A stretch of 64,000 nucleotides of DNA from Hormiphora californensis (Eukaryota; Animalia; Ctenophora). Shown one piece after another: positions 5,208-64,000 of the stretch (its first letter is position 1; each line of letters opens with the position of its first letter). The translations under genes and the position numbers were made by a program. The notes under the pieces were generated by a model. That model saw only the letters and a program-made list of their open reading frames with translations, had not been told where the DNA came from and did not search any database. The stretch covers positions 2,914,001 to 2,978,000 of the forward strand of contig CM035350.1 of assembly GCA_020137815.1 (NCBI GenBank). Direction: 5' to 3'.

Positions 5208-12985
<7,778 letters not shown>

Positions 12986-24690: not shown

Positions 24691-24849
24691 TCCATAGTGC
24701 CGTGTATCCCTGCCTTCAACTTCAACTCCCGAAAAAATCGCTTACGGTGGTGCGCAATTAAATTGTTAAACATCATATTTCATGAAACCGGTTAATTGAT
24801 TTTTTGATGAAGGATCATTTACTATGCGCTAACGTGACGTTACGCGAAT

Positions 24850-27800
24850 TTGACCAGGCTCGAGCTGAGTTACTATTTCAAATCCGAGATTTCCAAACCT
24901 AAATCTGAATCTCAGACGAGAAATTCAATAGCACATATTGTCTACTTGATCATGTCCCTTGATATTCAACAATAAGGGCTCTGATCAGACATGTAGAAAT
25001 TACAACAATCACTAGAATCTCCTACTATCAGTAACTTGATGATTTGTTCAGCTACTTCTCTCAGTAGGGCCTCCTACTATCAGTAACTTGATGATTTGTT
25101 CAGCTACTTCTCTCAGTAGGGTCTCCTACTATCAGTAACTTGATGATTTGTTCAGCTACTTCTCTCAGTAGGGTCTCCTACTATCAGTAACTTGATGATT
25201 TGTTCAGCTACTTCTCTCAGTAGGGTCTCCTACTATCAGTAACTTGATGATTTGTTCAGCTACTTCTCTCAGTAGGGTCTCCTATTATCAGTAACTTGAT
25301 GATTTGTTCAGCTACTTCTCTCAGTAGGGTCTCCTACTATCAGTAACTTGATGATTTGTTCAGCTACTTCTCTCAGTAGGGTCTCCTACTATCAGTAACT
25401 TGATGATTTGTTCAGCTACTTCTCTCACTAAGGTCTCGTACTATCAGTAACTTGATGATTTGTTCAGCTACTTCTCTCAGTAGGGTCTCCTACTATCAGT
25501 AACTTGATGATTTGTTCAGCTACTTCTCTCAGTAGGGTCTCCTACTATCAGTAACTTGATGATTTGTTCAGCTACTTCTCTCAGTAGGGTCTCCTACTAT
25601 CAGTAACTTGATGATTTGTTCAGCTACTTCTCTCAGTAGGGTCTCCTACTATCAGTAACTTGATGATTTGTTCAGCTACTTCTCTCAGTAGGGTCTCCTA
25701 CTATCAGTAACTTGATGATTTGTTCAGCTACTTCTCTCAGTAGGGTCTCCTACTATCAGTAACTTGATGATTTGTTCAGCTACTTCTCTCAGTAGGGTCT
25801 CCTACTATCAGTAACTTGATGATTTGTTCAGCTACTTCTCTCAGTAGGGTCTCCTACTATCAGTAACTTGATGATTTGTTCAGCTACTTCTCTCAGTAGG
25901 GTCTCCTACTATCAGTAACTTGATGATTTGTTCAGCTACTTCTCTCAGTAGGGTCTCCTACTATCAGTAACTTGATGATTTGTTCAGCTACTTCTCTCAG
26001 TAGGGTCTCCTACTATCAGTAACTTGATGATTTGTTCAGCTACTTCTCTCAGTAGGGTCTCCTACTATCAGTAACTTGATGATTTGTTCAGCTACTTCTC
26101 TCAGTAGGGTCTCCTACTATCAGTAACTTGATGATTTGTTCAGCTACTTCTCTCAGTAGAATCTCCTACTATCAGTAACTTGATGATTTGTTCAGCTACT
26201 TCTCTCAGTAGGGTCTCCTACTATCAGTAACTTGATGATTTGTTCAGCTACTTCTCTCAGAATATGCTTGATGTTTATATTGAATATTGGAGCACTCACA
26301 GCTCATACAGGCACCCTACCCACTCACAGGGTAACACCCTAGATCTTTTATTTACTAACTGTCCTGAGATCGTCAGTGATCTAGCTGTGATGGAGAAGGA
26401 CGCACTGTGTGTATCTGATCACCATGGTGGTTCCTTCTCTATCTCAGATACTATATGGGATAGAGACCCAGCAAGGGCAAAGGGCGAACCTATTTTGATT
26501 TTAATAAAGCCGATTGATGTTGCTCTAGCCCGTCTTGACTGGGATAATATTGTTGTGAGTAATGCTAACATTGCTTGAAAGAAGTTGTGTGGTAGCCTTT
26601 TCGAATGTGTTGAGAAGTACATCCCCATGAGACGTCTCAGGGGTTCCTTTGAACCCATGCAGCATCCTACACCAATTATACTCAACAATGTTGAGTCAAC
26701 ATATTGAGTTTCATCTCAAGGAACTCTTTCTGTACAATGACATGCGGCTGTTTTCCTGCGTGAAGCCCTCAGACGCACGGCGTGTGATATGTATTTGATA
26801 TCTAAGAAATGCAAAAAAATTCCGTGCAGTTTGAAACTTCTTCCAATAAATTCCCCAAAATAAGGCTGCTGCAGCATGGTTCCTAAACATTCCTTTACCA
26901 GCTGCCCTGTTCAGCGAGAAGCTGGGGTCAGGCCAAGTGTACCGACTGTGACAGCAAAATTGTTTTACCAGAGTCCTTTTAGCAAAGATCTGGGCAGATC
27001 TCAGTGCTGCACACCACACACAATTCAAAAAGTAGCGCTGTAATTATCTGTTCAGACAGTGAAGTCGTTTGCCTATTAGCTATACTGCAGTCTAGACTCT
27101 GTCGAGTTTTTGATGCGGCAGATCAAGTGTCCGCACGTCTCATAGAAAGTATTTAAATATTACTTTGTGCGTGATCGACATCTGTTTCAGAGAGCTTTAC
27201 TTGGTGCTAGACGTCGGGAACGGATCGAAACTTGAATGGCATTTATGAAGAAAGGCATGAGAGGCACCTGAGTGAAATAGTTCGATAGAAACGAGAGAGC
27301 TCTTTGCAGTTCGATCTTGTACAGCCGCCCTATCGTATTAATTTTGAACAGCATATTTTTTCTAGAATGAAACCTAGGCCGCGCCCTAGCATAAGTCTAC
27401 GCTTATAGGATCACAGTCAATCAAGCTATTTCTATCAATTTCACATTGGCTGACTCTAAGAGAGAACATAGTGTTCTATTCTCACATGCAGTTTACTCTT
27501 GGCCTTTACCATGGATCCATCCTCGAGATGGACGGTATAATCAGAACCGAAACTCACTCCCTCAGAAGTTAGATGTGTCGACACTTGTCCTTGTTGCCCA
27601 GTATTTTCTACTTTATCGCATATTGTAATCGCCGGTTTCACTAAACAAATCGTTTTTTATCTTCTTAATACCCAATTCATCTTTCTCGTAAGAATCGTAC
27701 TACAAAACTCCACAAACTGTCCACGACTTGCAATATAATACACCGGCCCCAAAACCAAGATGAATGAGGTTGGAACTCGATATTAAGATCTGATATTATG

Positions 27801-31792: not shown

Positions 31793-33676
31793 TATGATTC
31801 CTCCCAGTAACACCTCCAGTCGCTATCATTGACCATGCTTTGTCTAAGCCCCCTCTATTGTTTACCAATTACCCCCATCTGCTCTCATCACGCCACAAAG
31901 AGAGCAACTCACTATCTATCATCGCTGGAAAACCCGCTAAGGTGGTGATGTGATAACGAGAGTTAACGCCTGTCACGTGACTGTCACGTGATACTCACCA
32001 TATAACTACCCCACCACAGCTGATGCTGCTGAACCCGCGATAATATACCACTTCTGTTAATGAGCGTCAGAAATAAGGGAACTATTTAGTTTATCTCTTA
32101 GCTTCCTTCCTATAGCCCTTCTGGAACAGTAGTTTGATGCATTGAATTTGGATGAATATGAGACTTCAGTAATATCATTTTGCATTTTTTCCCCGCCCGG
32201 GTGAAGGCTGAAGGCCTTCACCCGGATGCCTTTTGCAAAAAGGCATAGGGGTTTAGAAATCTAAACGGATATAGTGACTATGTGTAGCAAGTCAGCTCTC
32301 TTGTCCCGTTTCAGGTTGCGAGGGGCAACATATAGCAACTAGAGCCGCGCACACAACAACAACCTGCTCCTTCATAAACCACTTCTATGACATGTTTTCA
32401 GGAATTGTGTGCCGCACAATTCCGCAATGTGGCGCGCAATTTAGTGCTACTAAAACATAAGGATTTGTTCTATACTGTTTGCTTGATTTATAAATGATCC
32501 GAAATGCCTGTCCCGCCTTCGTGTTAGAAATGAAAGGTTGGCGGGGAAACATAGCATTATGAAACATAATGCATTTATTCTTGTTAATACTTACCCGCCC
32601 GACATACTTGGTTTAAATTGAAATATTCAGATATTTGTAGTTTATAGGGTGGCCGAAGTCGAGTAGGGTAGGGGTAATGAAGATTGATAGGGTAGGGGAA
32701 TGAAGATTGATGAAACTGTTTGTATTGTGCGACTCAATGCGTTGTTCGGTCTCGCCAAGGTTACTATTAATTATACCCTCCAGCCGCCACGACAGTTTGT
32801 TCTGATTAGAATCAGCAACCTCATATAAATAGAAGTGGAATGAGTTAGACACATATAATATGAAGGGGATGAGTTATTGAGCACCAGTTAGTGGACAGCG
32901 ATCTGTCAGACATGCTGACACATTGTCTCAAGAGGCCGGGGGGGGGGGGCAGCCAGGGGGTAATATCTATCTAAACCACACCTGGTGACACTAACCATAT
33001 TACACAATCCTTTCTTTTGTTATCTCCCTGCGTATTCTAATAGTTACCCACCGCCCCCACACACATGACTTGCCTTGTTCGACCCTCCCTCCCCGCGCCC
33101 CGGTTTGAACAAAACAACACATGACGTGCAGATATGGGGGGCACTTAGAGCTGCCGCCATACTTTAGTGGCAGCCCTCCCATTAACGAGTTTAACATGTT
33201 GTAATTGATTTGATGGAACAACACATCTATGTGTTTGTGTGTGTTTTTTGTTACAGCTCCCAGCTGTGCAGTCTCTCTAACAGCTCCCTTCAGGCCTTAC
33301 TTTAGCATGTTTAGATGAAGTCAATCAAATCGATATAGATATAACTTGGTGGCCCAAACTTGCTAATGCTCATTCTAATCTCTCAGAAAATTAATGGAGC
33401 GATGTGGTTCATAGGTGCGATATAGATCACATCCAGTGCTAATTAATTAATATTAGGCTGTCCAAGAAATAATGTCGCGGGCCGATTTCTCTATTGGAGA
33501 ATCTCCAATATGGCCCAACGATTTCAATAAAAACCTTTTCTAGCTTGTTAATTTAACTCTTGACTTCATAAAACGATGGTCTATTTTGAAAAATTTGGTA
33601 TTTGAGGCACCTAACACGCAATGTATATTATATCCAACGATTTGATTCAACCAGTCATTAATATTATCTAGAGATC

Positions 33677-37344
<3,668 letters not shown>

Positions 37345-38184: not shown

Positions 38185-39749
38185 CTAAACTATATCGGGT
38201 GAAGACTGAAGACCTACTTTTATTTCTGACAGTGTTTCCGTGGCAGTCGTTATTGATGATGGTTTGCTATCACCTGAAAAACATGTCGGTAATTAATTAA
38301 AACACTAAAGGAATAAAAGAACCCCTCCAAAATTATTCCTTTTCTACTAAACCCCAACTTCAGATCATTACCATATTGGTATGTTCTCCTCCACAACTTG
38401 GCGAGTACCCGATCTGTAACAGTGGTTCTGCAAAACAGTACCCTATAACAGGGCGACATTCCCCCAATCGCCTCAAATAGTGGGTGGGAGGTGTACGAGT
38501 TAATCCTGCTTCCCAGACGCTTCCGGACTGCTCGAGCTCGACAATACCGGTTAAAACTGACAATCTTCAACGTAGGTAGGTCTACAAGGGAGAGAGAGAG
38601 AATTAACTTTTGTGTACTGTTTTGTGTACTGTTTTGGGCCAAAACTTTTGGCACCATGTGATTTGAATTTGTGCAAATATAAATATTCATGACGGTCTGG
38701 TAGGTGTTAGCACATCATCGAGTACCTGCCGCTTCCTGTTCTGTTGCAATAATGTGAGTAAGGAACTCCCAACAAGACATGATCACCTCATCCTTCAAAC
38801 ATACCAACTCATCCTGACAGAGAGAGAGGATGGACATGTTAGAATACCCCACTAACAGTTAGAATATTCGATAAATCACACACACTGACGATGAGACATG
38901 ATGATGATGGGTAGTTCACCTGTCCGTAAGACTGATCCCGGCCCTTTTCTGTGTTCTCTGGATAGTAGTAGACTCTACAACTGAGAAACTTGACTCCGTT
39001 CGCTTCCCAAAACAACAGAATCTCAAAGAAGCTCATGCGCTCTCCGTCAGCTTTGTTCCTAATGTACAAACAGTCCCCCATGGTAAATGATCGGCTGAGA
39101 AAAGAACACCGCACAGCTCGGTAAAAAGCCTGGTTTTCATTCTGACCAAAGGCCTTCCCAATCCAAGCCAGACCCACATCACTAATTGAGTCTCTTTTGT
39201 TGAACCTGAAGTTAATGAGCTGTTGTTAGGGCAGATCTGCTGTTGATTAATGCATCAAGTTTTACAGAGCACAACCAGCAATACATGGTGGCACGTGGCG
39301 TCAAACTTGAGATGGTGAAAATAATATGTGTGTGAGTACAATTCACTGACAACCAACAATAATTCTATTGTCAATTATTGACAATAGAATATAAAACAGA
39401 CTAGAAAACAGAATTGACCTTTGACAGCAGACTAAAAAACAGACTAGAAAAAAGACTTGCCAAGGACACAAACAAACAAACACACGCACACATACACACA
39501 CCACATGTTTGGTATAATACCTATTCTGTTGCTGCCCATTGCACCCACCACTTCTATAACCATCTCCAGCTGCAGCGGTGCCATTGGGTAAATGACTCTT
39601 ATAGATGTGCCTGACTATCTAAATAATGTGAGGGCTTTTGTTACAAAAATAGCTCACAGTACACTTACTGAGACAGAGAGGGAGAGAGAGGGAGAGGGAG
39701 AGAGAGCGGGGGAGAGAGAGAGAGAGAGAGAGAGAGAGTGAGTGAGAGA

Positions 39750-41900: not shown

Positions 41901-42242
41901 GGATAAGAAGAATTATCGAGACCATGAATTAATTTATTATATGTTTTATAGTTTCAAGTTTACCCTGGTTTTAAAACCAGTGTGCCGTTTCACGTTTGTT
42001 TTACCTCTAACTTCAAACTTGAAGCCTCGTTATCCGAATTCCGTAAAAGAATTCGATTGATTCATATTTCGTATGATCCTAACTTCAAGTTCAAAATAGA
42101 ACCCACTCGCTTCACTTCTGTTTTTGGTTGACGCTTGGCCATGCCCATGATCTAAAAGTCAGACAACGATTAGGTGTATTCTTTAGTACGTTATTTATCC
42201 CTCAATTTCACTGAACAGATCTGCACTCTGCTAGGTTGTTGT

Positions 42243-43281
42243 ATGGAAGAGGATATAGTTAAAGAGATATCATTTGGGGATTCCCCCATTTACAGAGATA
42301 TTTCCTTATCGTCATCAAGCTCACATGATCCATCGGCAGAGTCCTTACCAAACCGCCGCGATTCAGACTTTGCAGTTGACCTAACCTGGGGAGAATGGAT
42401 GCAGCAACTTCCTGGCTCTACAGGCAGGAAAATCAGAGAATTCCTTCTTATGCAATGGCGGTGGTCCAAAAACCTGTCGACCTACGCCCAACTCCCAGAA
42501 TGGTTAAAAGACAATAAGTTTATCTTGTCAGGTCACAGATTACCCATATACAGTTTCACGGGCTGTATGTTCAGCGTGTGCAGATGTCACTCTGAAACTG
42601 GGAATATTTGGACACATCTGCTAGGAAGTGTTGCTACCATCTGTCTTGCTATCTACTGCTTTGCAACACGTCTCCACAAATCTCACTGGTCCGAGCAGCT
42701 CGTTTACGCAGTTTTCTTTGCCACTGCTACACTTTGTATGGGCTTCAGCTGCATCTTCCATACCCTTATCAACCACTCACCCAAAATGTTCAAGTTGTTT
42801 TCCCGTCTCGATTACACCGGCATCGCCTTGCTAGTGGTTGGGAGTAACGCCCCTTGGCTGTACTATACTCACTTCTGCAGACCCCTCGCATTTATTATCT
42901 ACATATCGGGTAATGCCCTTGTGGGAACACTCGGGGTAATTGTTGCGCTCTGGGAAGAGTTTGATAAACCAAAATACCGGACATTTAGAGCTATCGTGTT
43001 TCTCACCATGGGTCTCACCGCTGTAATACCAGGTCTCCATTTCACCATCAAATGGGGCTGGAGTGCAGCTCTAGAGGAGGCCAGTGTGGGGATGGATGAT
43101 ACTGATGGGATTCTTTTACATATCCGGCACCCTTCTTTACATGGCACAAGTCCCAGAAAGATTCTTTCCGGGGAAGTGTGATATTTGGTTCCAGAGTCAT
43201 CAGATCATGCACGTGTGCGTCTTTATAGCGGTAGTGATTTGTTATCACGGTATCTCTCTCCTAGAGCATAGACACAGTTGA
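42243..43281 (+). CDS. ADIPOR: PAQR family / adiponectin receptor-like membrane protein (intronless CDS, one 1-nt frameshift at ~43088)
   Basis: LPEWLKDNKFILSGHR, HSETGNIWTHLLG, SCIFHTLINHS, RLDYTGIALL, then in the +1 frame PERFFPGKCDIWFQSHQIMHV. Confidence 0.92.
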
Positions 43282-49427: not shown

Positions 49428-51823
49428 ATGACAGAGCCTCCCCCGAAACGGCCTTGTAGAGGCATCGAAAAAGCTTGTCAAGAACTTTCAGACCTACTTG
49501 ATAAAGATGAACCAAGAAACTCGATTGTCGTAGACAATCTGTTACAAGTGGTACTGGAGGAGTGCAAGAATGGTGAAATTAGTGCAGAGACTAGACAGAT
49601 ATTCATTTCTTGGGATTTAAAAGGCTCACTCTTTCTTGTGATCTACGATACTGTGAACAATATACCTCCCATCCTTGCCGAAACTGTTCTGTCCATCCTC
49701 AACACGAGTTGCGACAACGATGCACTTTTTCAAGCGGTTGTTGTGCCCTGAATTGTTCAGACAATTCGCTTTCATATTCTTGCAGGAACCTGAAGTATTT
49801 GTACAGATGTCTTCGAATCCTCAACAAAGCCACAGCGATGTCATACAGGGTTCCTGTAGAGGCAATAGACATTATTTTGGTCGTAGACTACCTTCAAAAA
49901 CAGGTGATATCAGACCCAGACAAGCCTTTGAACCGAGATGATGACAAGATCCTTGAAGCGCTCACCACTTTAATAACTAACAATAAGATTTTACTTCGCA
50001 GCCTCGGCAACAGTAGCCAGGTAGTTACAGAGGTGGTGAAACTGTTTATCGCTGTTTCTGTAGCTACTAAAGACGATTATTTGGTGTGCCGACTGACACA
50101 AGAGGTAGTCGATGTTGGGCTAGAGGATCCTTTCCGTTTGTCACCCGCCAGACTATCAGTTCTGTTGACGCAATTAATTGAACAGATCTGTATTCACTTT
50201 CCGGAGACACTGCCTCGATTATACCAATGCGTCCGCACCTGTGTGTATTTAGCTAGGATAGCAGAGAAGCCCAGGCATACATTTTTCTCCAGGGTACTTT
50301 TGATTGGATCACTTGAGGATTGTCACGAGGTATACAAAATGTTATTTCGGCTGACCTGGCAATATCCACCATATTTTCTTCCGTTTCACGTCGGCGATCT
50401 TCATCAAGGGATATGTCATTTTGTCTCTGCCGTTCGGTACCCTGTCCGTGACTGGATAAGTACCTCAGGGAATTTCTTTTCCCTTTTTTACCATTTTGGA
50501 GTGGTAAAAGACACTAAAGACAAAGTTCTCTTTGATGCTATCTTGAATTTTCTGAAAATCTTGCTGGGAATGGATCATGATAAATCATTGAAACCGACCA
50601 TAATGGGGGCATTTCATCGCATCTTCAATGTCGCTGCTTTGCTATATGAAGTGGACGTATCGGAGGAGAACATCGTCCTTGTTTTGGACCTTCATACCAA
50701 ATACGGTAACGTAAAAATGACCTCGTTCCTGGCCATGCTCGCTAGAAGGCCAAATGCATACATGATGCTCCTCCAAATATCCTTCCATTGGCTTATTTTA
50801 ACCTATCCCAAGTTCCGGAGTATAGGACATGAAGAACTCTTTACATATAACAACCGTCGCAAATACGCAAACATCATCCAAGCAGTGACAGAGAGCAAAA
50901 AATACTTTGAAGATCATGAGTCCTTGATAGGGTTACTGGCAGACCTTCGACAAACTTCTCCTGGGACCTACCTGATTACACTGTCGGACTTTTTCTTATC
51001 CCAGATAGGTGAAAATAGGTCAGATAAAATTATAAGGGATGTCTGTGAAAGTGTCGTGCTAGTGGAAGATGATCCAAAAGATTTGCTACTTCGCCTTTTC
51101 TTCTCTATTATTCGGTACTTTCAAGGTTGCGTCTCGGATTTTCAAGAACCATTATCTGGAAAACTTTCCTCTAAGGGACTGAGACTAAGCAAAGAAAGAG
51201 GCGCCAGCTGCAGGGTTTTACTAAAGACAGATCCAACTTCACAACACCGCTGGGCGCCATCAACGGGGTTTACAAAATGTAAAAACCAGCCAATCACCAT
51301 CCTAGGAGCTGAGAATTCAGAGGGAGTTATTGTCAATGATAAAGACTTGTCATCGCTAATTTTAAACGAAATGTTTGAATCAGATTTCAAGGAAAGCTTA
51401 ACTCGAACCATCAGGATTCCTTCAGCACCTCAACGTGTCCTCGATGCTCTTCAGCTGATTTTAACGAAAGGGAGCATCATAGGGTTGGATAACCACGTCA
51501 CCATGTATGATGTTTGGGAGTGGTTGTTGCCATGGGCGACCATGTTTAAAGTTGATGGAGTGTTCAGCTACCTTGTGGGTTTTATGAAGGGACCCCACCA
51601 ACACTCCATCCCAGATGAGTGGATGGTGGAGTTTGCAGTACGGAGCAAGCACCCTGCCTGGTTGCTATTGGTTACCCAGAGATTCCTGGTGGTGGAAAAT
51701 GTGGACCTCCACCCTCGAGAGTTGGTATTTGCCATACGTGAGTTGCTAAACCTGGTTACTGATGATGAGAACTATCTCGTTAACATTATCAGGCATTATT
51801 CTAACCCTCAATTAACCTGGTAA
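49428..51823 (+). CDS. Helical-repeat plus C-terminal BTB-like protein (ARMC5-like), paralog 1; two 1-nt frameshifts (~49743, ~49797)
   Basis: The N-terminus MTEPPPKRPCRGIEKACQEL matches paralog 2; alignment to paralog 2 passes through three frames; BTB-like SLILNEMFESDFKESLTRTIRIPS. Confidence 0.7.
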
Positions 51824-52087: not shown

Positions 52088-54406
52088 ATGACAGAGCCAC
52101 CCTCGAAACGGCAGTGTCGGCGTATCGACAAAGCTTGTCGGGAGCTTGAAAATCTGCTTAGTAATAAGAATGAGTCTCGAAACTACTCGGCAATTACCAG
52201 CGTCTTACAGTTTGTCCTTAAAGACTATTGTGGCTCATTAGATGTGCTAAAGATACTTTATCAATCAGAATTCAAGGATGCATTTCTTATTCTGATTGCC
52301 GACAAGAACCTCCCCCATACACTCGCCAACACTGTCCTCTCGGTTCTTCATAACAGTTCCTATCACGAGGAATTATTTGCGGACCTCGTTCGCTCTGACA
52401 TTTTCAAGACTGTCATCAGTAACTTTTTACCCGTCCCAGAGTGCTATTACAGATCGTTGAGATTCCTCCACAAGGTGTGGCCGACCCACAACATTTCCAT
52501 GCGACTCACAGACCTCAATCCTATCATTTCATATCTAGAAAATCGCTTACCGTCCGAATCGGACCAACCATCTTACTCAGGAAAAACTGATATCCAGATC
52601 TATGCACAACTAGTCAGTTTCACGGTTTCAGTTTGCTCAAACGTGTCCCCTAGCCGATTCAACGCAGATACCCTCGTAGATTTGGCTACCTCTGTCGCTA
52701 AACTAAACGAGAAGAGTCACTGTTTAAAAGCGATACCGATTCTTGTCCAGAACCTGACAGAACGGATTGTCATACTTGCCATGGTGAACCCGCAACGCCC
52801 CGATCTCAGACTAAAGCTCGAATCAGTCCTCCCAGATCTGATTGAACAGATATGCGTTTTGTTTCCAGAGAAACTACCTGAACTCTATACCTCTGATTCC
52901 GTTCGATTCCTTTGCTACATATCCGAGGAAAAAAGAAATAAAACCTTTGCCCATACCCTTCAGGCAGGAGAGTCCTTGAAGGATTGTAAAGCGGTGATAG
53001 ATGTTTTGAAGATGATGATGGAGACAGGCAGTTACAAGGTGCAGTTAATGACTAAAGATCTTTGCAAGGGGATTTTTCACTTTGTTTCTATTCTCCGTGA
53101 ACCTGTTCGGAAATGGGTTGATTGCTCGCACCAGGCCCTTTGTCTTTTCTTCAACCTACGCTCCGATTGCGCTTCATTTATATTCGTACAGATGGAAGGG
53201 CTTTTTGAGGCCATCACTGCTTTCCTCAGGGTCCTGCAGAACCTGGACTTCAGTTCTCCGACAGCAATAAAAGTTAACAAAATCATTAAAGTGTGCCAAA
53301 ATGTCTTATCGCTGGCTTGGACTACTCTCACCTGGAACGAACGAGTGCAGGTATTCTTGGGACTTGTCGTGGACTTGTACGAAAAATATAGGTCGAATCG
53401 CATCTCCGCTTACCTCGTTATGGTTTTTAAAGATTATCGCGGCCGCTTGTGTAAACTTTTTGCCGAATCGTACTTTTGGATCACGATGTCTCATCCATGT
53501 CGCAGACACCAAGGGCATGAGGCGCTCTTTGCTTTGGAAAACCGGCCGGAAAATGGTGATTTCTGTCACGGTCTGCTAGAAAACTACATCGGATTAGAAA
53601 AGTTATTGACCGGGCTGGAGAACTTTCAAAGAGCCTACCAGCGGAGGGCTTACTTGAAGGCACTTTCAGATTACTTTATCTGTGGGTATTCTACGAGGTT
53701 CCAACCTCACATTGATGGAGTATGCGGTGTGATACAGATCTCCGAGAAGGATCCACCGGAACTATTGCTCCGACTTCTCCTCTGTCTCGTTAGGTATTTC
53801 CAGGGAGCACTCACCTCCGGATGGGAACCCTGGAAAGGAGGAAACGAGTTTACCATTAACGAGCAAGTCCGAGTTTTGGGAGAGGAAGGGGCTAAGGGAT
53901 TCTCGATCAGCCAGCGTTATCTTTCTTCCCCAATCCTGGACAAAATGTTCGCGTCGGATTTCAAAGAGGGTCGAACACGAACTATCACTATTCCCTCAGC
54001 CCCTAAAAACGTCCTCAGAGCACTATTCTTCATTTTGGTTAGCCACGGTTTAGACGTTGAGAAGCACGCGACTATGTATGATGTTTGGGAGTGGCTGTTG
54101 CCATGGGCGACCATCTATCAGGTTGATGGAGTGTTCAAATATCTGGTGAGTATCATGAAGGGAGAGCACCAACACTCCATCCCAGATGAGTGGATGGTGG
54201 AGTTTGCAGTACGGAGCAAGCACCCTGCCTGGTTGCTATTGGTTACCCAGAGGTTCCTGGTGGTGGAAAATGTGGACCTCCACCCTCGAGAGTTGGTATT
54301 TGCCATTCACGAGCTGATGAGGGCAGCCACTGACGAGGAGAACTATCTTGTAGATGTCATTAAGTATTACCACAAGTATGGCTATTATAAAAGTCCGTTG
54401 GATTAA
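52088..54406 (+). CDS. Helical-repeat plus C-terminal BTB-like protein (ARMC5-like), paralog 2, intronless 772 aa
   Basis: Intact ORF; NLS-like PPSKRQCRR; Leu-rich helical body; SPILDKMFASDFKEGRTRTITIPS resembles the BTB S.VF..MF...F.E...I.I signature. Confidence 0.8.
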   Translation: MTEPPSKRQCRRIDKACRELENLLSNKNESRNYSAITSVLQFVLKDYCGSLDVLKILYQSEFKDAFLILIADKNLPHTLANTVLSVLHNSSYHEELFADLVRSDIFKTVISNFLPVPECYYRSLRFLHKVWPTHNISMRLTDLNPIISYLENRLPSESDQPSYSGKTDIQIYAQLVSFTVSVCSNVSPSRFNADTLVDLATSVAKLNEKSHCLKAIPILVQNLTERIVILAMVNPQRPDLRLKLESVLPDLIEQICVLFPEKLPELYTSDSVRFLCYISEEKRNKTFAHTLQAGESLKDCKAVIDVLKMMMETGSYKVQLMTKDLCKGIFHFVSILREPVRKWVDCSHQALCLFFNLRSDCASFIFVQMEGLFEAITAFLRVLQNLDFSSPTAIKVNKIIKVCQNVLSLAWTTLTWNERVQVFLGLVVDLYEKYRSNRISAYLVMVFKDYRGRLCKLFAESYFWITMSHPCRRHQGHEALFALENRPENGDFCHGLLENYIGLEKLLTGLENFQRAYQRRAYLKALSDYFICGYSTRFQPHIDGVCGVIQISEKDPPELLLRLLLCLVRYFQGALTSGWEPWKGGNEFTINEQVRVLGEEGAKGFSISQRYLSSPILDKMFASDFKEGRTRTITIPSAPKNVLRALFFILVSHGLDVEKHATMYDVWEWLLPWATIYQVDGVFKYLVSIMKGEHQHSIPDEWMVEFAVRSKHPAWLLLVTQRFLVVENVDLHPRELVFAIHELMRAATDEENYLVDVIKYYHKYGYYKSPLD

Positions 54407-54798: not shown

Positions 54799-57700
54799 AT
54801 GGGAGTTCCAGCCTTCTTCCGATGGCTCTCCCGCAAGTACAAAAGTTTGATTGTCTACGCCCACGAGGAGAAACCTAAGGAGGTCAACGGGGTAAAGATC
54901 CCAATCAATACCTCCCTGCCGAACCCAAACAACATGGAGTTCGATAACCTCTACCTGGATATGAACGGTATCATCCACCCGTGTTGCCACCCCGAGGACA
55001 GACCTGCCCCGAGGAACGAGGACGAGATGATGGTGTGTATCTTTGACATGCTGGATAAACTGTTCAACATTGTCCGACCCCGGAAAGTGATCTACATGGC
55101 GATTGATGGCGTTGCACCTCGAGCCAAGATGAATCAACAGAGGAGCAGGAGGTTCAGGGCGAGGAAGGAGGCAGCCGAGAAGGAGGAGATGTTATCCGAG
55201 ATGAGAAGTCGGTTAACCGCCCAGGGATGTGTCCTCCCACCGGTCAAGGAGAAGGGTGCGAGGTTTGATAGTAATTGTATCACACCAGGTACCGAGTTCA
55301 TGTTCAGGCTAGCCGAGTGTCTCCGGTATTATTGCATTGACCGGCTGAATAACGATCCAGGATGGGCCAATATCCAGGTTTACCTGTCGGATAGTAACGT
55401 TCCTGGGGAGGGAGAGCACAAGATAATGGACTTTATCCGGCGGCAGCGACAAGACCCCAACTACGAGCCCAATACCCATCATTGTCTGTGTGGAGCTGAT
55501 GCGGATCTGATAATGTTGGGTTTGGCAACACACGAGCCTCACTTCACCATCATCAGAGAGGAATTTAAACCCGGTCCACCTCCCTCAAAACCGTGCGAGT
55601 TGTGCGGACAGGAGGGTCACGATTTGGAGATGTGCAGGGGGTTAGCCTCCGATGAGGCTGTTGTGGAGGGGGTGGGGAAGAAGGTGGCCGTGGAGCAGAA
55701 GTACATCTTTGTGAGGCTGTGCGCCCTCCGAGAGTACCTGGAGGACGAGTTAGCTCCCCTTAAGAACATCCTCCACGGAAACTACGATTTGGAGAGAGCT
55801 ATTGATGATTGGGTGTTCCTTTGTTTCTTTGTAGGCAACGATTTCCTGGCCCATCTCCCGTCTCTAGAGATCAGGGAGGGTGCCATTGATAGGCTGGTGA
55901 GGTTGTACAAAGATACGGTGAACAAGACACGAGGTTACCTCTGTAAGGATGGATTTCCAGATCTCAAGAAGGTACATGTTGTTTACTGTTCTAACTCTCT
56001 GAGCAAGGAATCCCTTCATTCCTTGGCATGCAAGCCCAGACTCTCTGCAGTAGTAGTAATGTATACTTGATCCTAGATCTGTCCATCGAATAATGTTCCT
56101 TTCTTTTCCCCAGGTTCAAATCATAATGACAGAACTAGGGAAGGACGAGGATCAGATATTCAAGGACCGATACGAGAAGGAGCAGGATTTCAAAAGGAGA
56201 GATCGAGAAAAGAAGAAGCGAATGAAGAAGAGTGAGACGCCTCACTGGACACCTAACCGTCCCAAAACAGCAGTAAACGGTGCTGTGTCAGGTCTATACC
56301 AGCAGTTCAGTGAGCCAGTGGCGCTGGATGGGAACCAGAAGGCAGCTTGGGACAAACAGAAGAAGTTAGATGCCCCTCCTGGCACCACGGCCCCTGCTGG
56401 AGATTCTGCTGTGGCCGCTTACATCTCTCAGGTAACTGTGAATAGGGTTGCCATGTTGGTTACGAAGTCACCCCTGTTATTATATTGCATGAGCTATTAT
56501 AGTGCAGAGGGGTCGTAATTTCATTACCAATAATAACAAGTTGCCATACCGGTCGCGGGTCGTGGACATACATACTATAAATTATTACAGTCGGACCCCG
56601 ATTTAGTGGCCCCCGATTTAGTGGCACCCCGATTTAGTGGCAGGATTTTGTTCCCCCGATATAGGAAATTAACATTATTTGACCCCGATTTAGTGGCACC
56701 CCGATTTAGTGGCACCCCGATTTAGTGGCAGGATTTTTTTCCCGGGAGGATGCCACTAAATCGGGGTCCGACTGTATGTAATATATCAAAAAGTTCTAAT
56801 ACGCAATACCGCCCCCCCCCCCCTCAAATCCTTACCGCCGCTTCCCCTCTACAGGCCCGACAGGACACCCCTGCTATGAAGAGGGCTGCACCTGGTGACG
56901 ATGAGGAGGAAGAAGAGAAAGATAACGATGAGGTGCGACTACACGAGGATGGGTGGAGGGACAGGTACTACCTTCAAAAGTTCAAGGTATCACCTGAGGA
57001 TGGGACCTTTGTTCAGAAAGTTGTCGCTGCATATGTCACCGGTCTCTGCTGGGTTCTCAGGTAATACACAGAAGTTGGGTATGATACTATGATATCTCCC
57101 CCCTTCTTCTATCCTCCTGCACTGTCTCTCTCATGTTATCCTTCCCATAAAGAGAGGGGACACTGTACCCAACCACAGAAGGGGGCACAGAGTGTCTGTT
57201 TGTTGTCCTGTCCCCAAATGATAATTTGAGTTTATTGTGAAGTTTCTAACAGTCACCCACAACAATTTATAACAGCTATAGTCACCACTGTGTCTTCTAA
57301 CTTCAGTAATATTTCCAGGTACTACTACCAGGGATGTGCGAGTTGGAACTGGTACTTCCCCTTCCATTATGCTCCTTTTGCCTCGGATTTCAGGAACATT
57401 GCTCAACTGTTCAAAGACTTCCCTCTCGACACCAAACCATTCAACCCAATGGAGCAGCTGATGGGTGTCTTCCCTGCAGGTTGGTAGTAATGTGTGCAGA
57501 TGATGCATGTAGTATTAGTAGTAATGTGCAGTGATCGAGGGAGGGGGGATGGTGAACACTTGATGTAGGGCGGTGTATAATAGTTCCTAGCACTATCTCT
57601 AATCTCTATCTTATTTTCCTAAATCACTATCTCATTCCTAACTCCCCCTCTTTCTCTCGCCAGGAAGCAAGTCGTTCCTCCCAGACGCGTGGGCCGAGCT

Positions 57701-58484
57701 GATGTACCAGCCGGATTCACCCATCATTGACTTCTACCCCTCCAACTTCAAGATTGATCTAAACGGAAAGAAGTACGCTTGGCAGGGTGTGGCTCTCCTC
57801 CCATTCGTTGATGAACAGAGACTCCTCGCTGGTCTCAGTTCTGTCTATGATACACTTGACGAGAGGGAGATGCTGAGAAACAAACCTGGTGAAGACAGGA
57901 TATTTATATCCGCCAAACACCCTTGGTATGAGTCTTTCGTGGCGCTCTACGAGCAACCTGACAATAAAGAGTACATACAGCTGGACCCAACTAAAGGAAG
58001 GGGTACTACGGGCAACATTCGACCTGATGATGAGGCCATAGCACCCAAATCGATGGTCCCCTCACCCTCGCCCTCCCTTCCAGCATTTGAGAACACAGGC
58101 GCTGTGTCAGCAGGATATTTGAATCCCCAGTTTCCTAAAGGTTTCATATTCCCCGCCAAACTGCTACCCAACGTTGAGATGCCCCAGAAGACGGTGAAAC
58201 CTAAAAACTGGAGTGACAACCGACCGGGAGCGTACCGTCCCTATACCGGGTTCCAGAGGGCTCGTCCCATGCAGGGCCCAAACACCGTGGGAAACAGGAT
58301 GTTGGGTCACATGGTGAGGGGTATGGAACACAGACACCGCGGACCTCATCACCACCAACAACAACGATATCCGCCACCCTACCAGCATAGAGGGAATCAC
58401 AGTGGCGGTCACCATGGTGGGGGACATCGGGGTGATAGGTCAAATAGGGGGTCAAATCAACATTACAACCCGTATAGACGATAA
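54799..58484 (+). CDS. XRN2: 5'-3' exoribonuclease 2 (Rat1/XRN2), 5 exons
   Basis: MGVPAFFRWL, DNLYLDMNGIIHPCCHP, DGVAPRAKMNQQRSRRF, CELCGQEGH knuckle, YYYQGCASWNWYFPFHYAPFASDF, DLNGKKYAWQG. Exons 54799-55971, 56114-56431, 56855-57060, 57319-57479, 57664-58484. Confidence 0.97.
56588..56774. mobile_element. Tc1/mariner/pogo-like MITE in XRN2 intron 2
   Basis: TA|cagtcggaccccgatttagtggc ... gccactaaatcggggtccgactg|TA, with internal ccccgatttagtggc repeats; a related end lies at ~22425-22446. Confidence 0.85.
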
Positions 58485-59718
58485 GAGGAGAGGGACTTGA
58501 ATCGTTGGGGACGATAATGAAGAGTGAGTGAGAAAGAGAGCGAGAATTGATATTGAAGGATATTTTCTTAACTATGCCAGACAGAAAATAAGCGAATAAT
58601 GGTGTGGTTCGGGCTGGTTTAATTTATGTTTTACCTAATGTTATCTCTTATTCTGATGAAAATGTTTTACTAACACCTTTACCGCCAAACATGACTGTGT
58701 CTCATTTATTTGCCACAGAACGGAGGGAGACATCGGTGGAACGCGCGAGATACTTCTTGTGTAAAAAGTAAACCTTTCCGCGCGACAGCATTAGCGAGTG
58801 GGTGGCGCGCACTCACTATTTGTCCATTTGATGCACGATTGCTTTCGTTACGTGAGCTCTTTCCGTTCTGTTCCTCAGTTTGGAAATCCCCTACCGTGTT
58901 CCACATTTTTGTGTCACTAGCTGGCAGCGGACTGCAACTCGAGGGGACTAAGCAGTTGAACCTCAAGTGAGACGTGAGTCCTGAGTTCTTCTTGAGCCTT
59001 GACTGAGCTTGTTTCAAGTTCAAACCTTGCCTTGTTCCACCCTCTCCCCGCGTTTGAACAAAACAATTCGACCCTTTTAACCCTAGGAGCGGTAAGATAG
59101 GGTCGAGCAATGCAAGATGGGGTTGCATTCTTAGCTATCAACTCGTATTTTGAGTAGTTGCTATTATCTCTGTATCCATCAGGGGATGGGCGAAATATTG
59201 TGTCGTAACTATAGTTATATGATACCCTGCATGCCAGTATTTGCTTCCCTATGAGCTGTGCTGCTGTGCCCTCAACTAGGAAAATAAAGTTGTGATAGGC
59301 CTTGCCACTTTTCGCCCAAGGCATTCTATTGTATGCTCACTTGGTGTCATTGACCATTGTGTTTAAAAACTCAATAGGCTGTTCCGTGTGTGTACTGTGT
59401 AGTGTTGGTACTAGACACAATGACCAATGGCCAATGGAGAACCTGTGATCATATATAACTTGGTTGCTTATTATAGTCCCTTGCCTTGCTCGGCCCTCTC
59501 TCTCTCTCGACCCCACATAACAAGGTATCCTGTATGTGCCAAACTGCTAAATGGCCTGTTGAAGTACGTGAGCAAGATAACTGGTTAGCACTGTGTAATG
59601 TGAACCAAAACAAACAATCACTAAACCAGCGAGTATGTGCTACTGCTACTCTCTTATATCTCGTGCATTGTTGTTAATGTTTGTCCTACTGTTGTAGTGG
59701 GGGAGCTCAATATCAGCA

Positions 59719-59815
59719 ATGGCAGGCGACCATCCCTGCCTTGTTCAGGCGGGCATCTTCTTTGGATTTATCACCTTTATAATGTACCTAGGATATACAA
59801 AACCTCACCTAAAGG
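59719..59815 (+). CDS. Signal-anchor cassette exon A
   Basis: MAGDHPCLVQAGIFFGFITFIMYLGYTKPHLK-G|gtacgt. Confidence 0.6.
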
Positions 59816-60046
59816 GTACGTTCACCAAAATAAAACTCATCATACATGACAAGGCCATGTATCCTGATATGTCAGTATGTGCCAAACTGTTAAAATCATG
59901 GCCTGTTAAAGTACGTGAGCAAGATATCTAATAGATATTATCTATTAACTGGTTAGCACTCTGTAATGTGAACCAAAAACAAACAATTAAATCACTAAAC
60001 AAGCGAGTATGTTTCTCTCTCTCTCTCTCTTTCTCTCTATCTCTCT

Positions 60047-60139
<93 letters not shown>

Positions 60140-60147
60140 TCTCTCTC

Positions 60148-60178
<31 letters not shown>

Positions 60179-60281
60179 CCCTCTCTCAATCTTTATCTCT
60201 CTCTTTTTCTCAATCACACGTTCATTGTTGTAAATGTGTGCCCTACTGCAGCAGTTGTAGTTGAGGAGCTCAATATCAGCA

Positions 60282-60378
60282 ATGGCGGGTGACCCACCCC
60301 GTCTAGTCCAGGCGGCCTTCTTCTTTGGATTTCTCGCCCTTATAATGTACCTAGGATATACAAAACCTCATCTTAAGG
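60282..60378 (+). CDS. Signal-anchor cassette exon B
   Basis: MAGDPPRLVQAAFFFGFLALIMYLGYTKPHLK-G|gtacgt. Confidence 0.65.
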
Positions 60379-60832
60379 GTACGTTCACCAAAATAAAACT
60401 CGCGGGTATAAAGCTCACTTTTTCAGCTAGATCAGGCTGAACATGACATCAACATATTGTGTTTATTACCTGTACTCTACGTCTGTGCACGCTACGTCTG
60501 TGCACGCTACGTCTGTGCACGCTACGTCTGTGCACGCTACGTCTGTGCACGCTACGTCTGTGCCGTCACGGTAATGCCATTACAGTATCTCCACTACTTG
60601 AGCACCACTGTTATGTCTAACCCTCCTGTACTGAGATAGTTGATCAAGGGAAGGGTATTATAGCAGTCTGCAGTATGTAGTAGCTAACACCATTCCTCCC
60701 GCTTTAGGCTGAATGGCCAGAGGTTTAAGGTGAAGTGCTGAGTACTCTCTAGCTGTCAATAAACATCACAGCTAATAGCATGATTTGCCATACTTTCTAA
60801 AACATCTGTGATTTACCAAAACTTGATGGAAA

Positions 60833-60932
60833 ATGGGGTGCCCCCCGCCCCAATTGATGTTTACAATGGCCGTCTTTGCTGGTGTCCTTATCCCTGTAAT
60901 GTACTATACTTTCACTAAACCTTACATGCAGG
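60833..60932 (+). CDS. Signal-anchor cassette exon C
   Basis: MGCPPPQLMFTMAVFAGVLIPVMYYTFTKPYMQ-G|gtacgt. Confidence 0.65.
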
Positions 60933-61056
60933 GTACGTTATAGCTCTTCCAAGTTTAGTACTTTAGTTGTAAAATTCCAAAATTTAGCTGCCAATGCCAT
61001 ACGTATCGTTTGACATATAAAAGGTGTGATACGAGACTTCACTTGCTTTACACAGG

Positions 61057-61287
61057 GGATTACAGGGCCCCGGTTGAGACGCCCATACCCGGGCCCCGTA
61101 TATCTGGTTTGTGCATTGTAATTGTGTACTTTTGTGCGTGGCTGTCAGAGCATTGGCCTGACCCTATTCTCATTTCTCTCAACTGTGGTCAGAGCATTGG
61201 CCTGACAGGCGCGTGGCATGCACGTGTGTGTGGGGCCCGGGTATGGGCGTCTGGTATGGGCGTCTCATCCAGGGTCCCCCGTAATCC
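61057..61287. mobile_element. Small GC-rich inverted-repeat element
   Basis: ggattac...gagacgcccatacccgggcccc is mirrored by ggggcccgggtatgggcgtct...gtaatcc. Confidence 0.6.
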
Positions 61288-61566
61288 GCTGCCTTACGCT
61301 GCCACTTGTAGTGGCATTACCGTAATGGAATTACAGTAATGAGACGCAGACTTTGCATATCGCGCATTTGTCAGCACGTACTAGCGCACTGATTGGCCAC
61401 GATTTGGCGTCTTCTTACCGTATCTCCGTTTTCCATTACCGTTTTCCACTACAAGCGACCGGGTTAGCATCTGGCTACATGCTACTCCATGCTCAGTGAG
61501 CATTGCTCAGTGAGCATTGCTCAGTGAGCATTGCTCACTTCGTAGTCTGTGTGGCTAGTTTTCATG

Positions 61567-61807
61567 ATAAAGTCGGATTTTTTGAAGTTGTCACCCCCCT
61601 TTTCACGCGCGGCGTCGTATTTGCGCGTGACAGCCGCATATCATCGGAAAGAGCATAATTTTGTGAGTCCGTAAACGTTTTGTTTGACGAAATTGGTCAA
61701 GAAACAAAGGCGTGAGAGCCAAAACAAGCTTCCGACACGTTTCCGACGCGCAAATAAAAACTCGCACGCCACCCAGGGGGTGACAACTTCAAAAAATCCG
61801 ACTTTAT
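61567..61807. mobile_element. MITE with ~33-bp TIRs; garbled second copy at ~19173-19443
   Basis: ataaagtcggattttttgaagttgtcaccccc ... gggggtgacaacttcaaaaaatccgactttat. Confidence 0.85.
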
Positions 61808-62094
61808 ATGACTTGGTTAATTACTAGTACTATATCTACTCCCCCCTTTTCCCAGTGTTAACCAGGTACTACTAGTATAGTACTGTGTCATTGGTCTAAA
61901 CAAACAATCACAAACGTGTCACACTTGTTTCGTTGTTGGCTCTCTATAATAATCTGTCAGAGCATTGGCCTGACCCATTCTCGTTTCTCTCAAGAAGTGT
62001 GGTCAGAGCATTGGCCTGACAGATAATAATAAGCCTTGTTAAACTCTAAAACTTGGGGAATTTCTAGATTAGTGGAGGCCGGGCTGTCTATAAA

Positions 62095-62188
62095 ATGAGG
62101 AGTAAGGACATATTTGTAGTAGCAGCCTTCATCTTTGCTATCCTAACCGTTATATTGTACTATGCGGTGACTAAACCGCACTTTAACG
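62095..62188 (+). CDS. Signal-anchor cassette exon D
   Basis: MRSKDIFVVAAFIFAILTVILYYAVTKPHFN-G|gtatgt; upstream acceptor tttctag at ~62067. Confidence 0.7.
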
Positions 62189-62262
62189 GTATGTTATAAA
62201 GATCCTCTCTGTGTGCTGTGTAGTGAGTATGATCCTGATATGATTGTATTGTAGAATAATAA

Positions 62263-62465
62263 CCACCTAGTTACACTTAGTGACACCTAGTGACACCTAG
62301 TGATACCTAGTGACACCTTTTGACACCTAGTTACACTTAGTGACACCTAGTTACACCTAGTGATACCTAGTGACACCTAGTTACACCTAGTGATACCTAG
62401 TTACACTTAGTGACACCTAGTGACACCTAGTAACACGTTTAATGACACCTAGTGACACCCAGTGT
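62263..62465. repeat. 10-bp tandem repeat (tagtgacacc)n; other short arrays at 60477-60562 (15 bp) and 61490-61538 (14 bp)
   Basis: Direct reading. Confidence 0.9.
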
Positions 62466-62741
62466 AATATTAGTGGACGTGCCACCTGTCATTGTGGGTG
62501 CTACCTACCTAGGTATACCTATTCAACAACTAACAAGTCATTGGTTATGCTACGTTGGTAGAGCCCGTGGATATTTTACGATCCATTGGGGGGGACGACA
62601 TGTTAATTGTTAATAAATCACCTCTTTTTTTCGATTTTGTTAATTAACGTTAATTAACAAAATTAACAAAGTTAACAAATCAGCAAAGACTGTTCTTATT
62701 GGTTGATAATACGACTTTAACTGGTTTAATTTTATAGTTTA

Positions 62742-63867
62742 ATGACTTTTCTAACACTTGGAAAGCGCAGTTCTTTGAGTAAAATCTCTTTCGATCCAGT
62801 TATCAACTTTGGAGGAACGGAAATCTTCCCCAGTGAATGTAGTGGAGCAGATGGGAAAACCTTGGGAATACTCTTGGACCACAATCTTAATCTTGAACGA
62901 CAGGTTAACAATGTGAGGAAACAGTGTGGGCTGATACTACGGAATCTTTGGCAGTTACACAGATGTTTTGATATTCAAACGAAGATAATGTTGGTGAAAC
63001 AATTGATTATATCGAGGATTGATTACAGTAATATTCTGTACTGTGGACTTCCGGCCCGAGTTCTTGGTGGGCTCCAGAAAACACTAAACTCCTGTGTACG
63101 CTTTATATTCAACATCCATGGGCATCAAGAGGATTACTCGGAATACTTCAGGCAGTGTCATATTTTACCCATCTCCTACAGACTGGACTTCAAAGCCTGT
63201 CTAATCGCTTATAAGATAGTCTATGGAACGGCGCCAGGTTACCTCCAGGAAATGGTTCCTCTTGATAAAAGCTGGGGAGTCTCCAGGACAACAAGGATGA
63301 CTAGTGTTATTGATCCTTACAGATTAAAACACCCCAAGATGACCAGTATCAACGCCAATTCTAAATTGAGACGTAGGAGACTATCAGTATTTCTGCCTGC
63401 TATTTGGAATGAGCTACCCCTTGAGTTAAGGTCGATCCCCAACGTTGATACCTTTAAAGCTCGCCTGAAAACACATCTCTTCGTTGGTGCATTTGGAGTG
63501 GGTGATGGGGAACCCATGGCTGAGTTGTAATGTTTGTTGTAGTTGTGGGGCCTGCGGGCAATCAGTGTCATCCTCTCTCTAGTCATGTTATTAAATCACT
63601 ATCTGGTATCCTTTTTTGAGCAGGTGTGAGTATAGCGTGTTTAAAATTATATCTACAGGTTTATGGGACCAGTTATTCCCCCAGTTTGATAAGTCCAGTT
63701 AATTTGGTTTTCCATATATTGTCTTTTTCAACCAGAATTGTTCGTGTGCGATATTTTTACTCTAGGATATACCGCTCTGATGACTCGTCGGAACATCGCC
63801 AATATTTTGACATGTTTCCGTCGGGTATGGGCGGTATATAAGCGCGGAATATTATTATTATTATTAC
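62742..63867 (+). mobile_element. 5'-truncated L2/Crack-like LINE (ORF2 C-terminus 62742-63530, 3' UTR, (ATT)n tail)
   Basis: TLGILLDHNL, LIISRIDYSNILYCGLP, HILPI..RLDFK, APGYL, WNELP, FKARLKTHLF; attattattattatta at ~63851-63866. Confidence 0.88.
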
Positions 63868-64000
63868 ATATATACACAAACAAGGCCTCTTCCGATAACC
63901 AAAGTCCGACATACATGTTTTTTGGCTCAAAATCGATAAAAATCCAAAAGTTACAAATATTTCAATTTAGCGGATAAAATCTCACTTTAACGTGATTTTT

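Follow-up and report, generated by a model that had tools for sequence, protein, structure and literature searches.

A tandem array of four paralogous anchor-encoding cassettes downstream of XRN2 in the ctenophore Hormiphora californensis: candidate alternative first coding exons

Results

The locus and its neighbors

The window, meaning the whole stretch of DNA analyzed here, comprises 64,000 nucleotides of the Hormiphora californensis contig CM035350.1 (assembly GCA_020137815.1, positions 2,914,001 to 2,978,000 of the forward strand), and coordinates are counted from its first letter. Its 3' part holds a complete XRN2 gene and then four short paralogous cassettes, A to D, with the associated features collected in Table 1. 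The product of the first XRN2 exon is 89% identical to the cluster containing Bolinopsis microptera XP_063687845.1 and about 67–71% identical to the listed mollusc, fish, sponge, and cnidarian sequences. A sequencing run of a diverged relative yielded contigs on XRN2 (13 of 17 less than 90% alike, with one GT-AG joint) and no contig over 60210-62260 or cassette A, a blank that has no bearing on expression.

On the other side of XRN2 lie two tandem, apparently intronless paralogues of ~770 aa (49428-51823 and 52088-54406, plus strand, ~37–39% identical) that have no Pfam or PDB match and whose C-terminal part, by eye, resembles a BTB-type domain; the first copy shows a change of frame near 49770-49800, either a frameshift or a small intron. 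An intronless ORF of the HlyIII/PAQR family (adiponectin-receptor-like, 42174-43181, plus strand) adjoins exons of an ELO-family fatty-acid elongase starting from 44455, so that two membrane-lipid genes are neighbors. Pieces of a rhodopsin-type GPCR (33662-37021, plus strand) are broken by a (GA)n tract and by ~50 tandem copies of a 30-nt unit, and a 582-aa non-LTR retrotransposon ORF with the end of a reverse transcriptase, RNase H, and a zinc finger (22967-24715, minus strand) adjoins a 52-nt tandem array (25018-26260). Matches to a BAH-domain exon (38839-39225, minus strand) and an SH3-domain exon (10463-10759, minus strand) are weak and below the Pfam cut-offs.

Table 1. Features of the cassette array and its surroundings (window coordinates)
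Feature	Coordinates	Strand	Remarks
XRN2	54799..58484	+	complete; upstream neighbor, ends 1.2 kb before A
CpG-rich patch	58600-58900		directly 3' of XRN2; donor-like GTGAGT at 58974
A/B tandem duplication	59515..60401	+	upstream DNA, exon, and 23 nt past donor; junction near 59840
Upstream non-coding block of A	59586..59621	+	14-mer at 59608 identical in D
Predicted 5'-UTR intron before A (GTATGT...TAG)	59633..59697	+	acceptor 21 nt before ATG
Cassette A	59719..59815	+	97 nt; 32 codons + 1 nt from ATG to donor; hydrophobic segment then TKPHLK
Predicted phase-1 splice donor of A	59816..59821	+	equivalents at 60379 (B), 60933 (C), 62189 (D); sequence basis
Upstream block before B	59977..60000	+	carries 5-nt insertion
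Homologous predicted 5'-UTR intron before B	60007..60260	+	contains (TC)n expansion; ends 21 nt before ATG
Cassette B	60282..60378	+	97 nt; 32 codons + 1 nt; paralogue of A
Degenerate 9-nt block remnant before C	60761..60769	+	not significant alone
Cassette C	60833..60932	+	100 nt; 33 codons + 1 nt; context more diverged than for the others
Upstream block before D	61878..61911	+	14-mer at 61898; 197 nt before ATG
69-nt inverted-repeat element upstream of D	61954..62022	+	inserted; 8-nt target-site duplication
Cassette D	62095..62188	+	94 nt; 31 codons + 1 nt; N terminus basic; segment more hydrophobic than in A to C
LINE-type reverse transcriptase fragment, C-terminal part	62730..63530	+	in presumed intron; not partner exon

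Four paralogous cassettes with donors in the same phase

The four ATG-initiated cassettes described in an earlier note on this DNA are all present, and each ends, as had been proposed, in a single G followed by a GTA[CT]GT donor in phase 1; the length modulo 3 is 1 in all four, and the bases directly 3' are GTACGTT for A, B, and C and GTATGTT for D. The array is a series of tandem paralogous ATG-bearing exons with a predicted phase-1 donor in every member. The string GGTA[CT]GT, with the exon boundary after the first G, occurs eight times on both strands of the 64 kb (128 kb in total), and four of these occurrences are at the cassettes. Of the conserved motif that the note had reported, the Tyr, Thr, Lys, and Pro residues are invariant, as is Met-1, and the spacing needed correction, three residues rather than two separating Tyr from Thr (Y-x-x-x-T-K-P). 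A cassette pattern matches four times in the window and in none of 100 shuffles; as it was fitted to these same four copies, this result speaks for their relatedness and not for function. A profile search of the window found no fifth copy, the next score being 6.8 bits beside self-matches of 64–74 bits for A to D.

None of the four cassettes has acquired a stop or a frameshift or lost its donor, despite synonymous differences of 32–66%. Furthermore, the T at +2 and the G at +5 of the donor, which would be third codon positions if the donor were coding, are kept in all four. An out-of-frame ATG lies 7 nt upstream of the start of C. Judged by sequence, A to D are paralogues with intact reading frames, each predicted to encode a membrane anchor.

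Growth of the array and selection

The proposal that A and B arose by a recent tandem duplication including upstream DNA is confirmed, ~59515-59838 aligning with ~59844-60401. The copied unit, arranged head-to-tail, takes in ~200 nt upstream of the exon, the exon itself, and 23 intron-side nucleotides, so that the B unit starts ~30 nt past the donor of A. No second exon is found within the duplicate, and what the spacers share is limited to the upstream block, simple repeats, and small elements with inverted repeats. Unless every exon is a whole gene, the array is the product of exon duplication and not of gene duplication.

Comparison of A with B over 31 codons (pS 0.32, pN 0.11, dN/dS 0.28, Fisher p 0.025) shows purifying selection between them. 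Over 26 right-anchored codons, dN/dS is 0.26 for B and D (p 0.017), 0.40 for A and D (p 0.07), 0.42 for B and C, 0.80 for A and C, and 1.75 for C and D, the last three values not being significant; of the selection that the note had suggested looking for with dN/dS, there is thus a significant trace in two of the six pairs (A–B and B–D) and in no pair with C. Cassette C looks weakened. When D was evolved neutrally in 200,000 runs, all of the features considered (ATG, frame, hydrophobicity, Y/TKP, and donor, a set chosen after the fact) were kept in 2.1%, 0.3%, and 0.003% of cases at branch lengths of 0.2, 0.3, and 0.5. Across 204 aligned sites, the non-coding flanks of A and B show 11 differences, a level far below that of synonymous sites, which reflects constraint, conversion, or alignment bias; gene conversion may therefore confound the divergence figures.

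Sequences upstream of the cassettes

An exact 14-mer is common to the regions upstream of A and D and occurs nowhere else in the window. The A–D block alignment outscores 299 of 300 resampled stretches and all 300 real control stretches, and the block stands 111 nt before the start codon of A and 120 nt before that of D when the 69-nt inserted element is discounted. The block before C (77 of 300 real controls equally good) and the B–D pair taken alone (46 of 300) are not significant. Only one other 14-mer on the plus strand is shared with the upstream 300 nt of A, and it is a microsatellite. No such block was found within 400 nt of the four other gene starts examined, and we regard it as a candidate promoter or 5' leader element.

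The GTATGT...TAG intervals before A and B, which contain the upstream ATGs of both, and the YAG sites 22 and 27 nt before the ATG of D may represent introns of the 5' UTR or acceptors for a leader, and the acceptor before A could also accept a spliced leader; no acceptor lies close to cassette C. Ctenophores commonly use spliced leaders, which stand on 56% of Hormiphora Iso-Seq reads (PMC8527503). A second copy of the inserted element is found at 61142-61208, nested in a larger inverted-repeat element (61065-61277); both copies, of 67–69 nt, have CTGTCAG ends and 8-nt target-site duplications. From the length of these duplications, we take the elements to be hAT-like.

Predicted properties of the peptides

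The apolar stretch of the cassettes measures 19–21 residues, inside the range of type II anchors, whose apolar segment spans ~17–28 residues near the N terminus (PMC2139883). Mean Kyte-Doolittle values over 21 residues are 1.62 (A), 1.44 (B), 1.70 (C), and 2.57 (D). The hydrophobic stretch that the earlier note had described is thus present, and the name "cytosolic" that it gave to the short tail is an interpretation rather than an observation. The charge of the C-terminal flank minus that of the N-terminal flank is +3 for A, +2 for B, +1 for C, and 0 for D when the side chains of Lys, Arg, Asp, and Glu are counted, figures that cover the 6 known residues of the 15 that charge rules consider in the C-flank; with His and the amino terminus included, the differences shrink to about +2, +1.5, 0, and −0.5. 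The more positive flank is usually cytosolic, and type II anchors are expected to have the more positive N-flank (PMC2139883). By this rule A and B lean, as a lead, toward an N-out/C-cytosolic topology, opposite to type II, and with the amino terminus and His included C would be neutral and D slightly type II. The suggestion of type II anchors for Golgi glycosyl- or sulfotransferases gained no support, as the search for a downstream domain was blank and, by the charges known, the N-flank is not the more positive one.

Signal anchors of the mitochondrial outer membrane, for example that encoded by plectin exon 1b, combine moderate hydrophobicity with a positive C-flank (PMC2426950). With hand-delimited segments and a permissive rule, this combination fits A, B, and C and not D, and the resemblance of A and B to mitochondrial outer-membrane anchors is a lead. 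A cleavable signal peptide instead of an anchor is possible: counted back from the conserved Lys, positions −3 and −1 hold small residues in all four cassettes, but the apolar stretch is longer than usual in cleaved signals (PMC2139883).

Partner exon, read-through ends, and homology searches

The absence of partner coding exons between the cassettes, reported by the note, was borne out: blastn within the window found no coding sequence shared between the spacers, none of ~70 candidate phase-1 acceptors in the window recurs after each cassette, and four phase-1 candidate frames matched no Pfam family. The acceptor-like sites of B and D, when joined to an upstream donor, lead to a stop after 10, 1, or 8 codons, so that upstream transcripts would need to skip them. 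The window ends 1.8 kb past cassette D. In this last part, the 62730-63530 fragment, presumably of the LINE class, weakly matches the RT/RNase H ORF of the window (E 0.003), a 10-mer tandem repeat also lies 3' of D, and a frame at 62512 has a loose likeness by eye to a Tom7 tail that we judged to be chance.

Read without splicing, A and B run into unrelated tails (70 and 52 aa in total, non-homologous beyond 8 codons) with AATAAA inside the frame, and an intron fits this better than a protein end does. If left unspliced, C and D terminate at the same position, with products of 36 and 34 aa, and are identical at 9 of the 10 bases directly past the exon end; no AATAAA or ATTAAA follows C within 500 nt.

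Cassette alignments gave no match among 1.84 billion protein representatives at E 0.001 and none among 510 longer candidates or the single near-length one at E 10. None of the four read-through peptides was found exactly in a protein search; at 31–43 residues, all of these blanks are weak. The ESM Atlas returned for D just small-membrane-protein clusters at 0.80–0.82, which is chance level. In metagenomes, none of 36 pattern matches was confirmed, the pattern having contained a residue encoded past the donor, and a second scan had nothing orthologue-like among the at least 120 matches listed (best listed 21.6 bits). The best PDB profile match of the cassettes had E 0.065, and Rfam gave no match in 58500-64000. 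A likeness to the CISD2 membrane helix was dropped as it had no Pfam support.

Discussion

The anatomy of the array suggests, with a probability of about 0.65, that the cassettes serve a single gene as alternative first coding exons, each spliced in phase 1 to one shared downstream exon, predicted to lie beyond position 64000. This layout is supported by duplication of the exon only, by donors that agree in phase, by the purifying selection that acts between A and B, by the shared block upstream, and by the lack of a local partner exon, so that the variable-first-exon part of the earlier reading has support from anatomy and its type II Golgi part has none. The array would have grown by tandem copying of upstream DNA, exon, and intron start, as seen for A and B and presumed for C and D. 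Separate start sites, marked by the upstream block for A, B, and D, would choose among the cassettes and set where and when each form appears. Since the anchors differ in hydrophobicity and flank charge, the shared domain might be placed in different membranes or orientations, by sequence rules N-out/C-cytosolic or in the mitochondrial outer membrane with A and B and along the ER route with D. Transcription, donor use, the common acceptor, separate promoters, and different targeting are the steps that we infer.

How a cassette is chosen could also be explained by one promoter 3' of XRN2 feeding all cassettes, with cis-splicing or spliced-leader trans-splicing onto the acceptors of A, B, and D making the choice, the CpG-rich patch and its donor-like site being a possible non-coding first exon. 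We consider this unlikely, and its probability lies within that of the main reading, with which it shares the step to a common downstream exon. The YAG acceptors of A, B, and D (21, 21, and 22/27 nt upstream of the respective ATG), the frequency of leaders in Hormiphora, and a CpG observed/expected ratio of 1.21 in the patch against 0.13–0.40 just upstream of A, C, and D agree with it, but a ratio of 1.2 is reached by 8% of 300-nt windows, GT[AG]AGT occurs 0.375 times per kb, C has no near acceptor, and the block conserved before the cassettes is left unexplained. That the cassettes are instead four single-exon micropeptide genes, descended from a single-pass peptide of 34–36 aa ending in G-T/M-L-stop, with extended tails in A and B and a coding "donor," is a quite unlikely alternative. 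It is common to find small membrane peptides encoded in tandem, the window lacks a partner exon, and C and D share their stop position and 9 of the first 10 bases past the exon end; yet A and B lack that stop and have non-homologous tails with in-frame AATAAA while under purifying selection, the donor bases are kept at synonymous positions, and C has no nearby polyadenylation signal.

A single working first exon, D or B, with the other cassettes decaying as spares would agree with the vestigial block and out-of-frame ATG (at −7) of C and with a dN/dS of C that is never significant. It appears improbable given the four intact frames and donors at the observed synonymous differences and the purifying selection in A–B and B–D. 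Descent of the cassettes from Tom7, the small TOM-complex subunit of mitochondria, in which case they would share a short tail exon, is more doubtful still. In Pfam, A and B match Tom7 alone (E 0.0057 and 0.0045, respectively), the top three PDB matches of A are Tom7-type chains (E 0.04–0.33), and 35 pattern-matched hydrophobic control peptides, which include mutual relatives, yield no match to Tom7 at E 0.1 and none to any family at E 0.01. But the scores of A and B (16.8 and 17.1 bits) compare with a gathering score of 27 for Pfam PF08038, C and D have no match, the fungal chains exceed the cassettes in their N-terminal part by at least 10 residues, and cytochrome oxidase subunit 3 scores nearly as high. 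Moreover, the proline of the Tom7 membrane helix, universally conserved according to PMC7522991, is replaced by Thr in A, Ala in B, and Thr in D and lies one residue off in C. No publication on Tom7 in Mnemiopsis was found in the mostly non-subscription literature covered. Our own reading is that the likeness of A and B reflects similar anchor chemistry.

Returning to alternative first exons, a more far-reaching version can be put forward tentatively: the cassettes may be four paralogous address labels, one of which is picked by promoter or spliced-leader choice so as to place the same domain differently. Equally tentative, and taken jointly with such a label array, is the assignment of A and B to the mitochondrial outer membrane or a cytosol-facing position and of D to the secretory route. 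If true, this would be a protocadherin-like variable/constant layout shrunk to targeting signals, of independent origin in early-branching animals, and a ctenophore with such an anchor-only array would provide a case of the design emerging on its own via promoter-plus-exon duplication. A natural series of four members with one cargo would let small changes of anchor be tested for their effect on organelle and topology. Gene finders are likely to miss three of the four exons. No anchor-only paralogous first-exon array in ctenophores was found in the mostly non-subscription literature searched, and genome annotations may already hold the isoforms. The layout itself is of a known kind; variable-first-exon arrays are known mainly from vertebrates, with large variable exons.

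Among known systems, Tom7 is weakly similar to the hydrophobic segment of A and B. The alternative anchors TA1 and TA2 of SLMAP, which differ in hydrophobicity, route the protein to the ER or also to mitochondria and differ from the cassettes in being C-terminal, two in number, and experimentally demonstrated (PMC2712456). In plectin isoform 1b, a short first exon (38 aa) gives an N-terminal signal anchor with a moderate hydrophobicity of 1.49 and a positive C-flank (PMC2426950). Cassettes A, B, and C, at 1.27, 1.18, and 1.33 over 23 residues with a positive C-flank, resemble it. Unlike in plectin, all four alternatives here are related anchors with predicted targeting, and we know of no array of anchor paralogues among the plectin first exons. 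The vertebrate protocadherin alpha and gamma, UGT1, GCNT2, and UGT2A clusters share with the cassettes tandem paralogous first exons, same-phase donors, and growth by exon duplication (PMC1885805). According to the same source, the variable exons of Pcdh, UGT1, and GCNT2 are large and encode recognition domains, whereas the cassettes encode an anchor of 31–33 aa only. The vertebrate clusters have constant exons, and here the constant exon is predicted and the host is a ctenophore. Finally, the variable exons of UGT1 are preceded by a conserved motif at an approximately fixed distance (PMC1885805), a spacing that the A/D block resembles.
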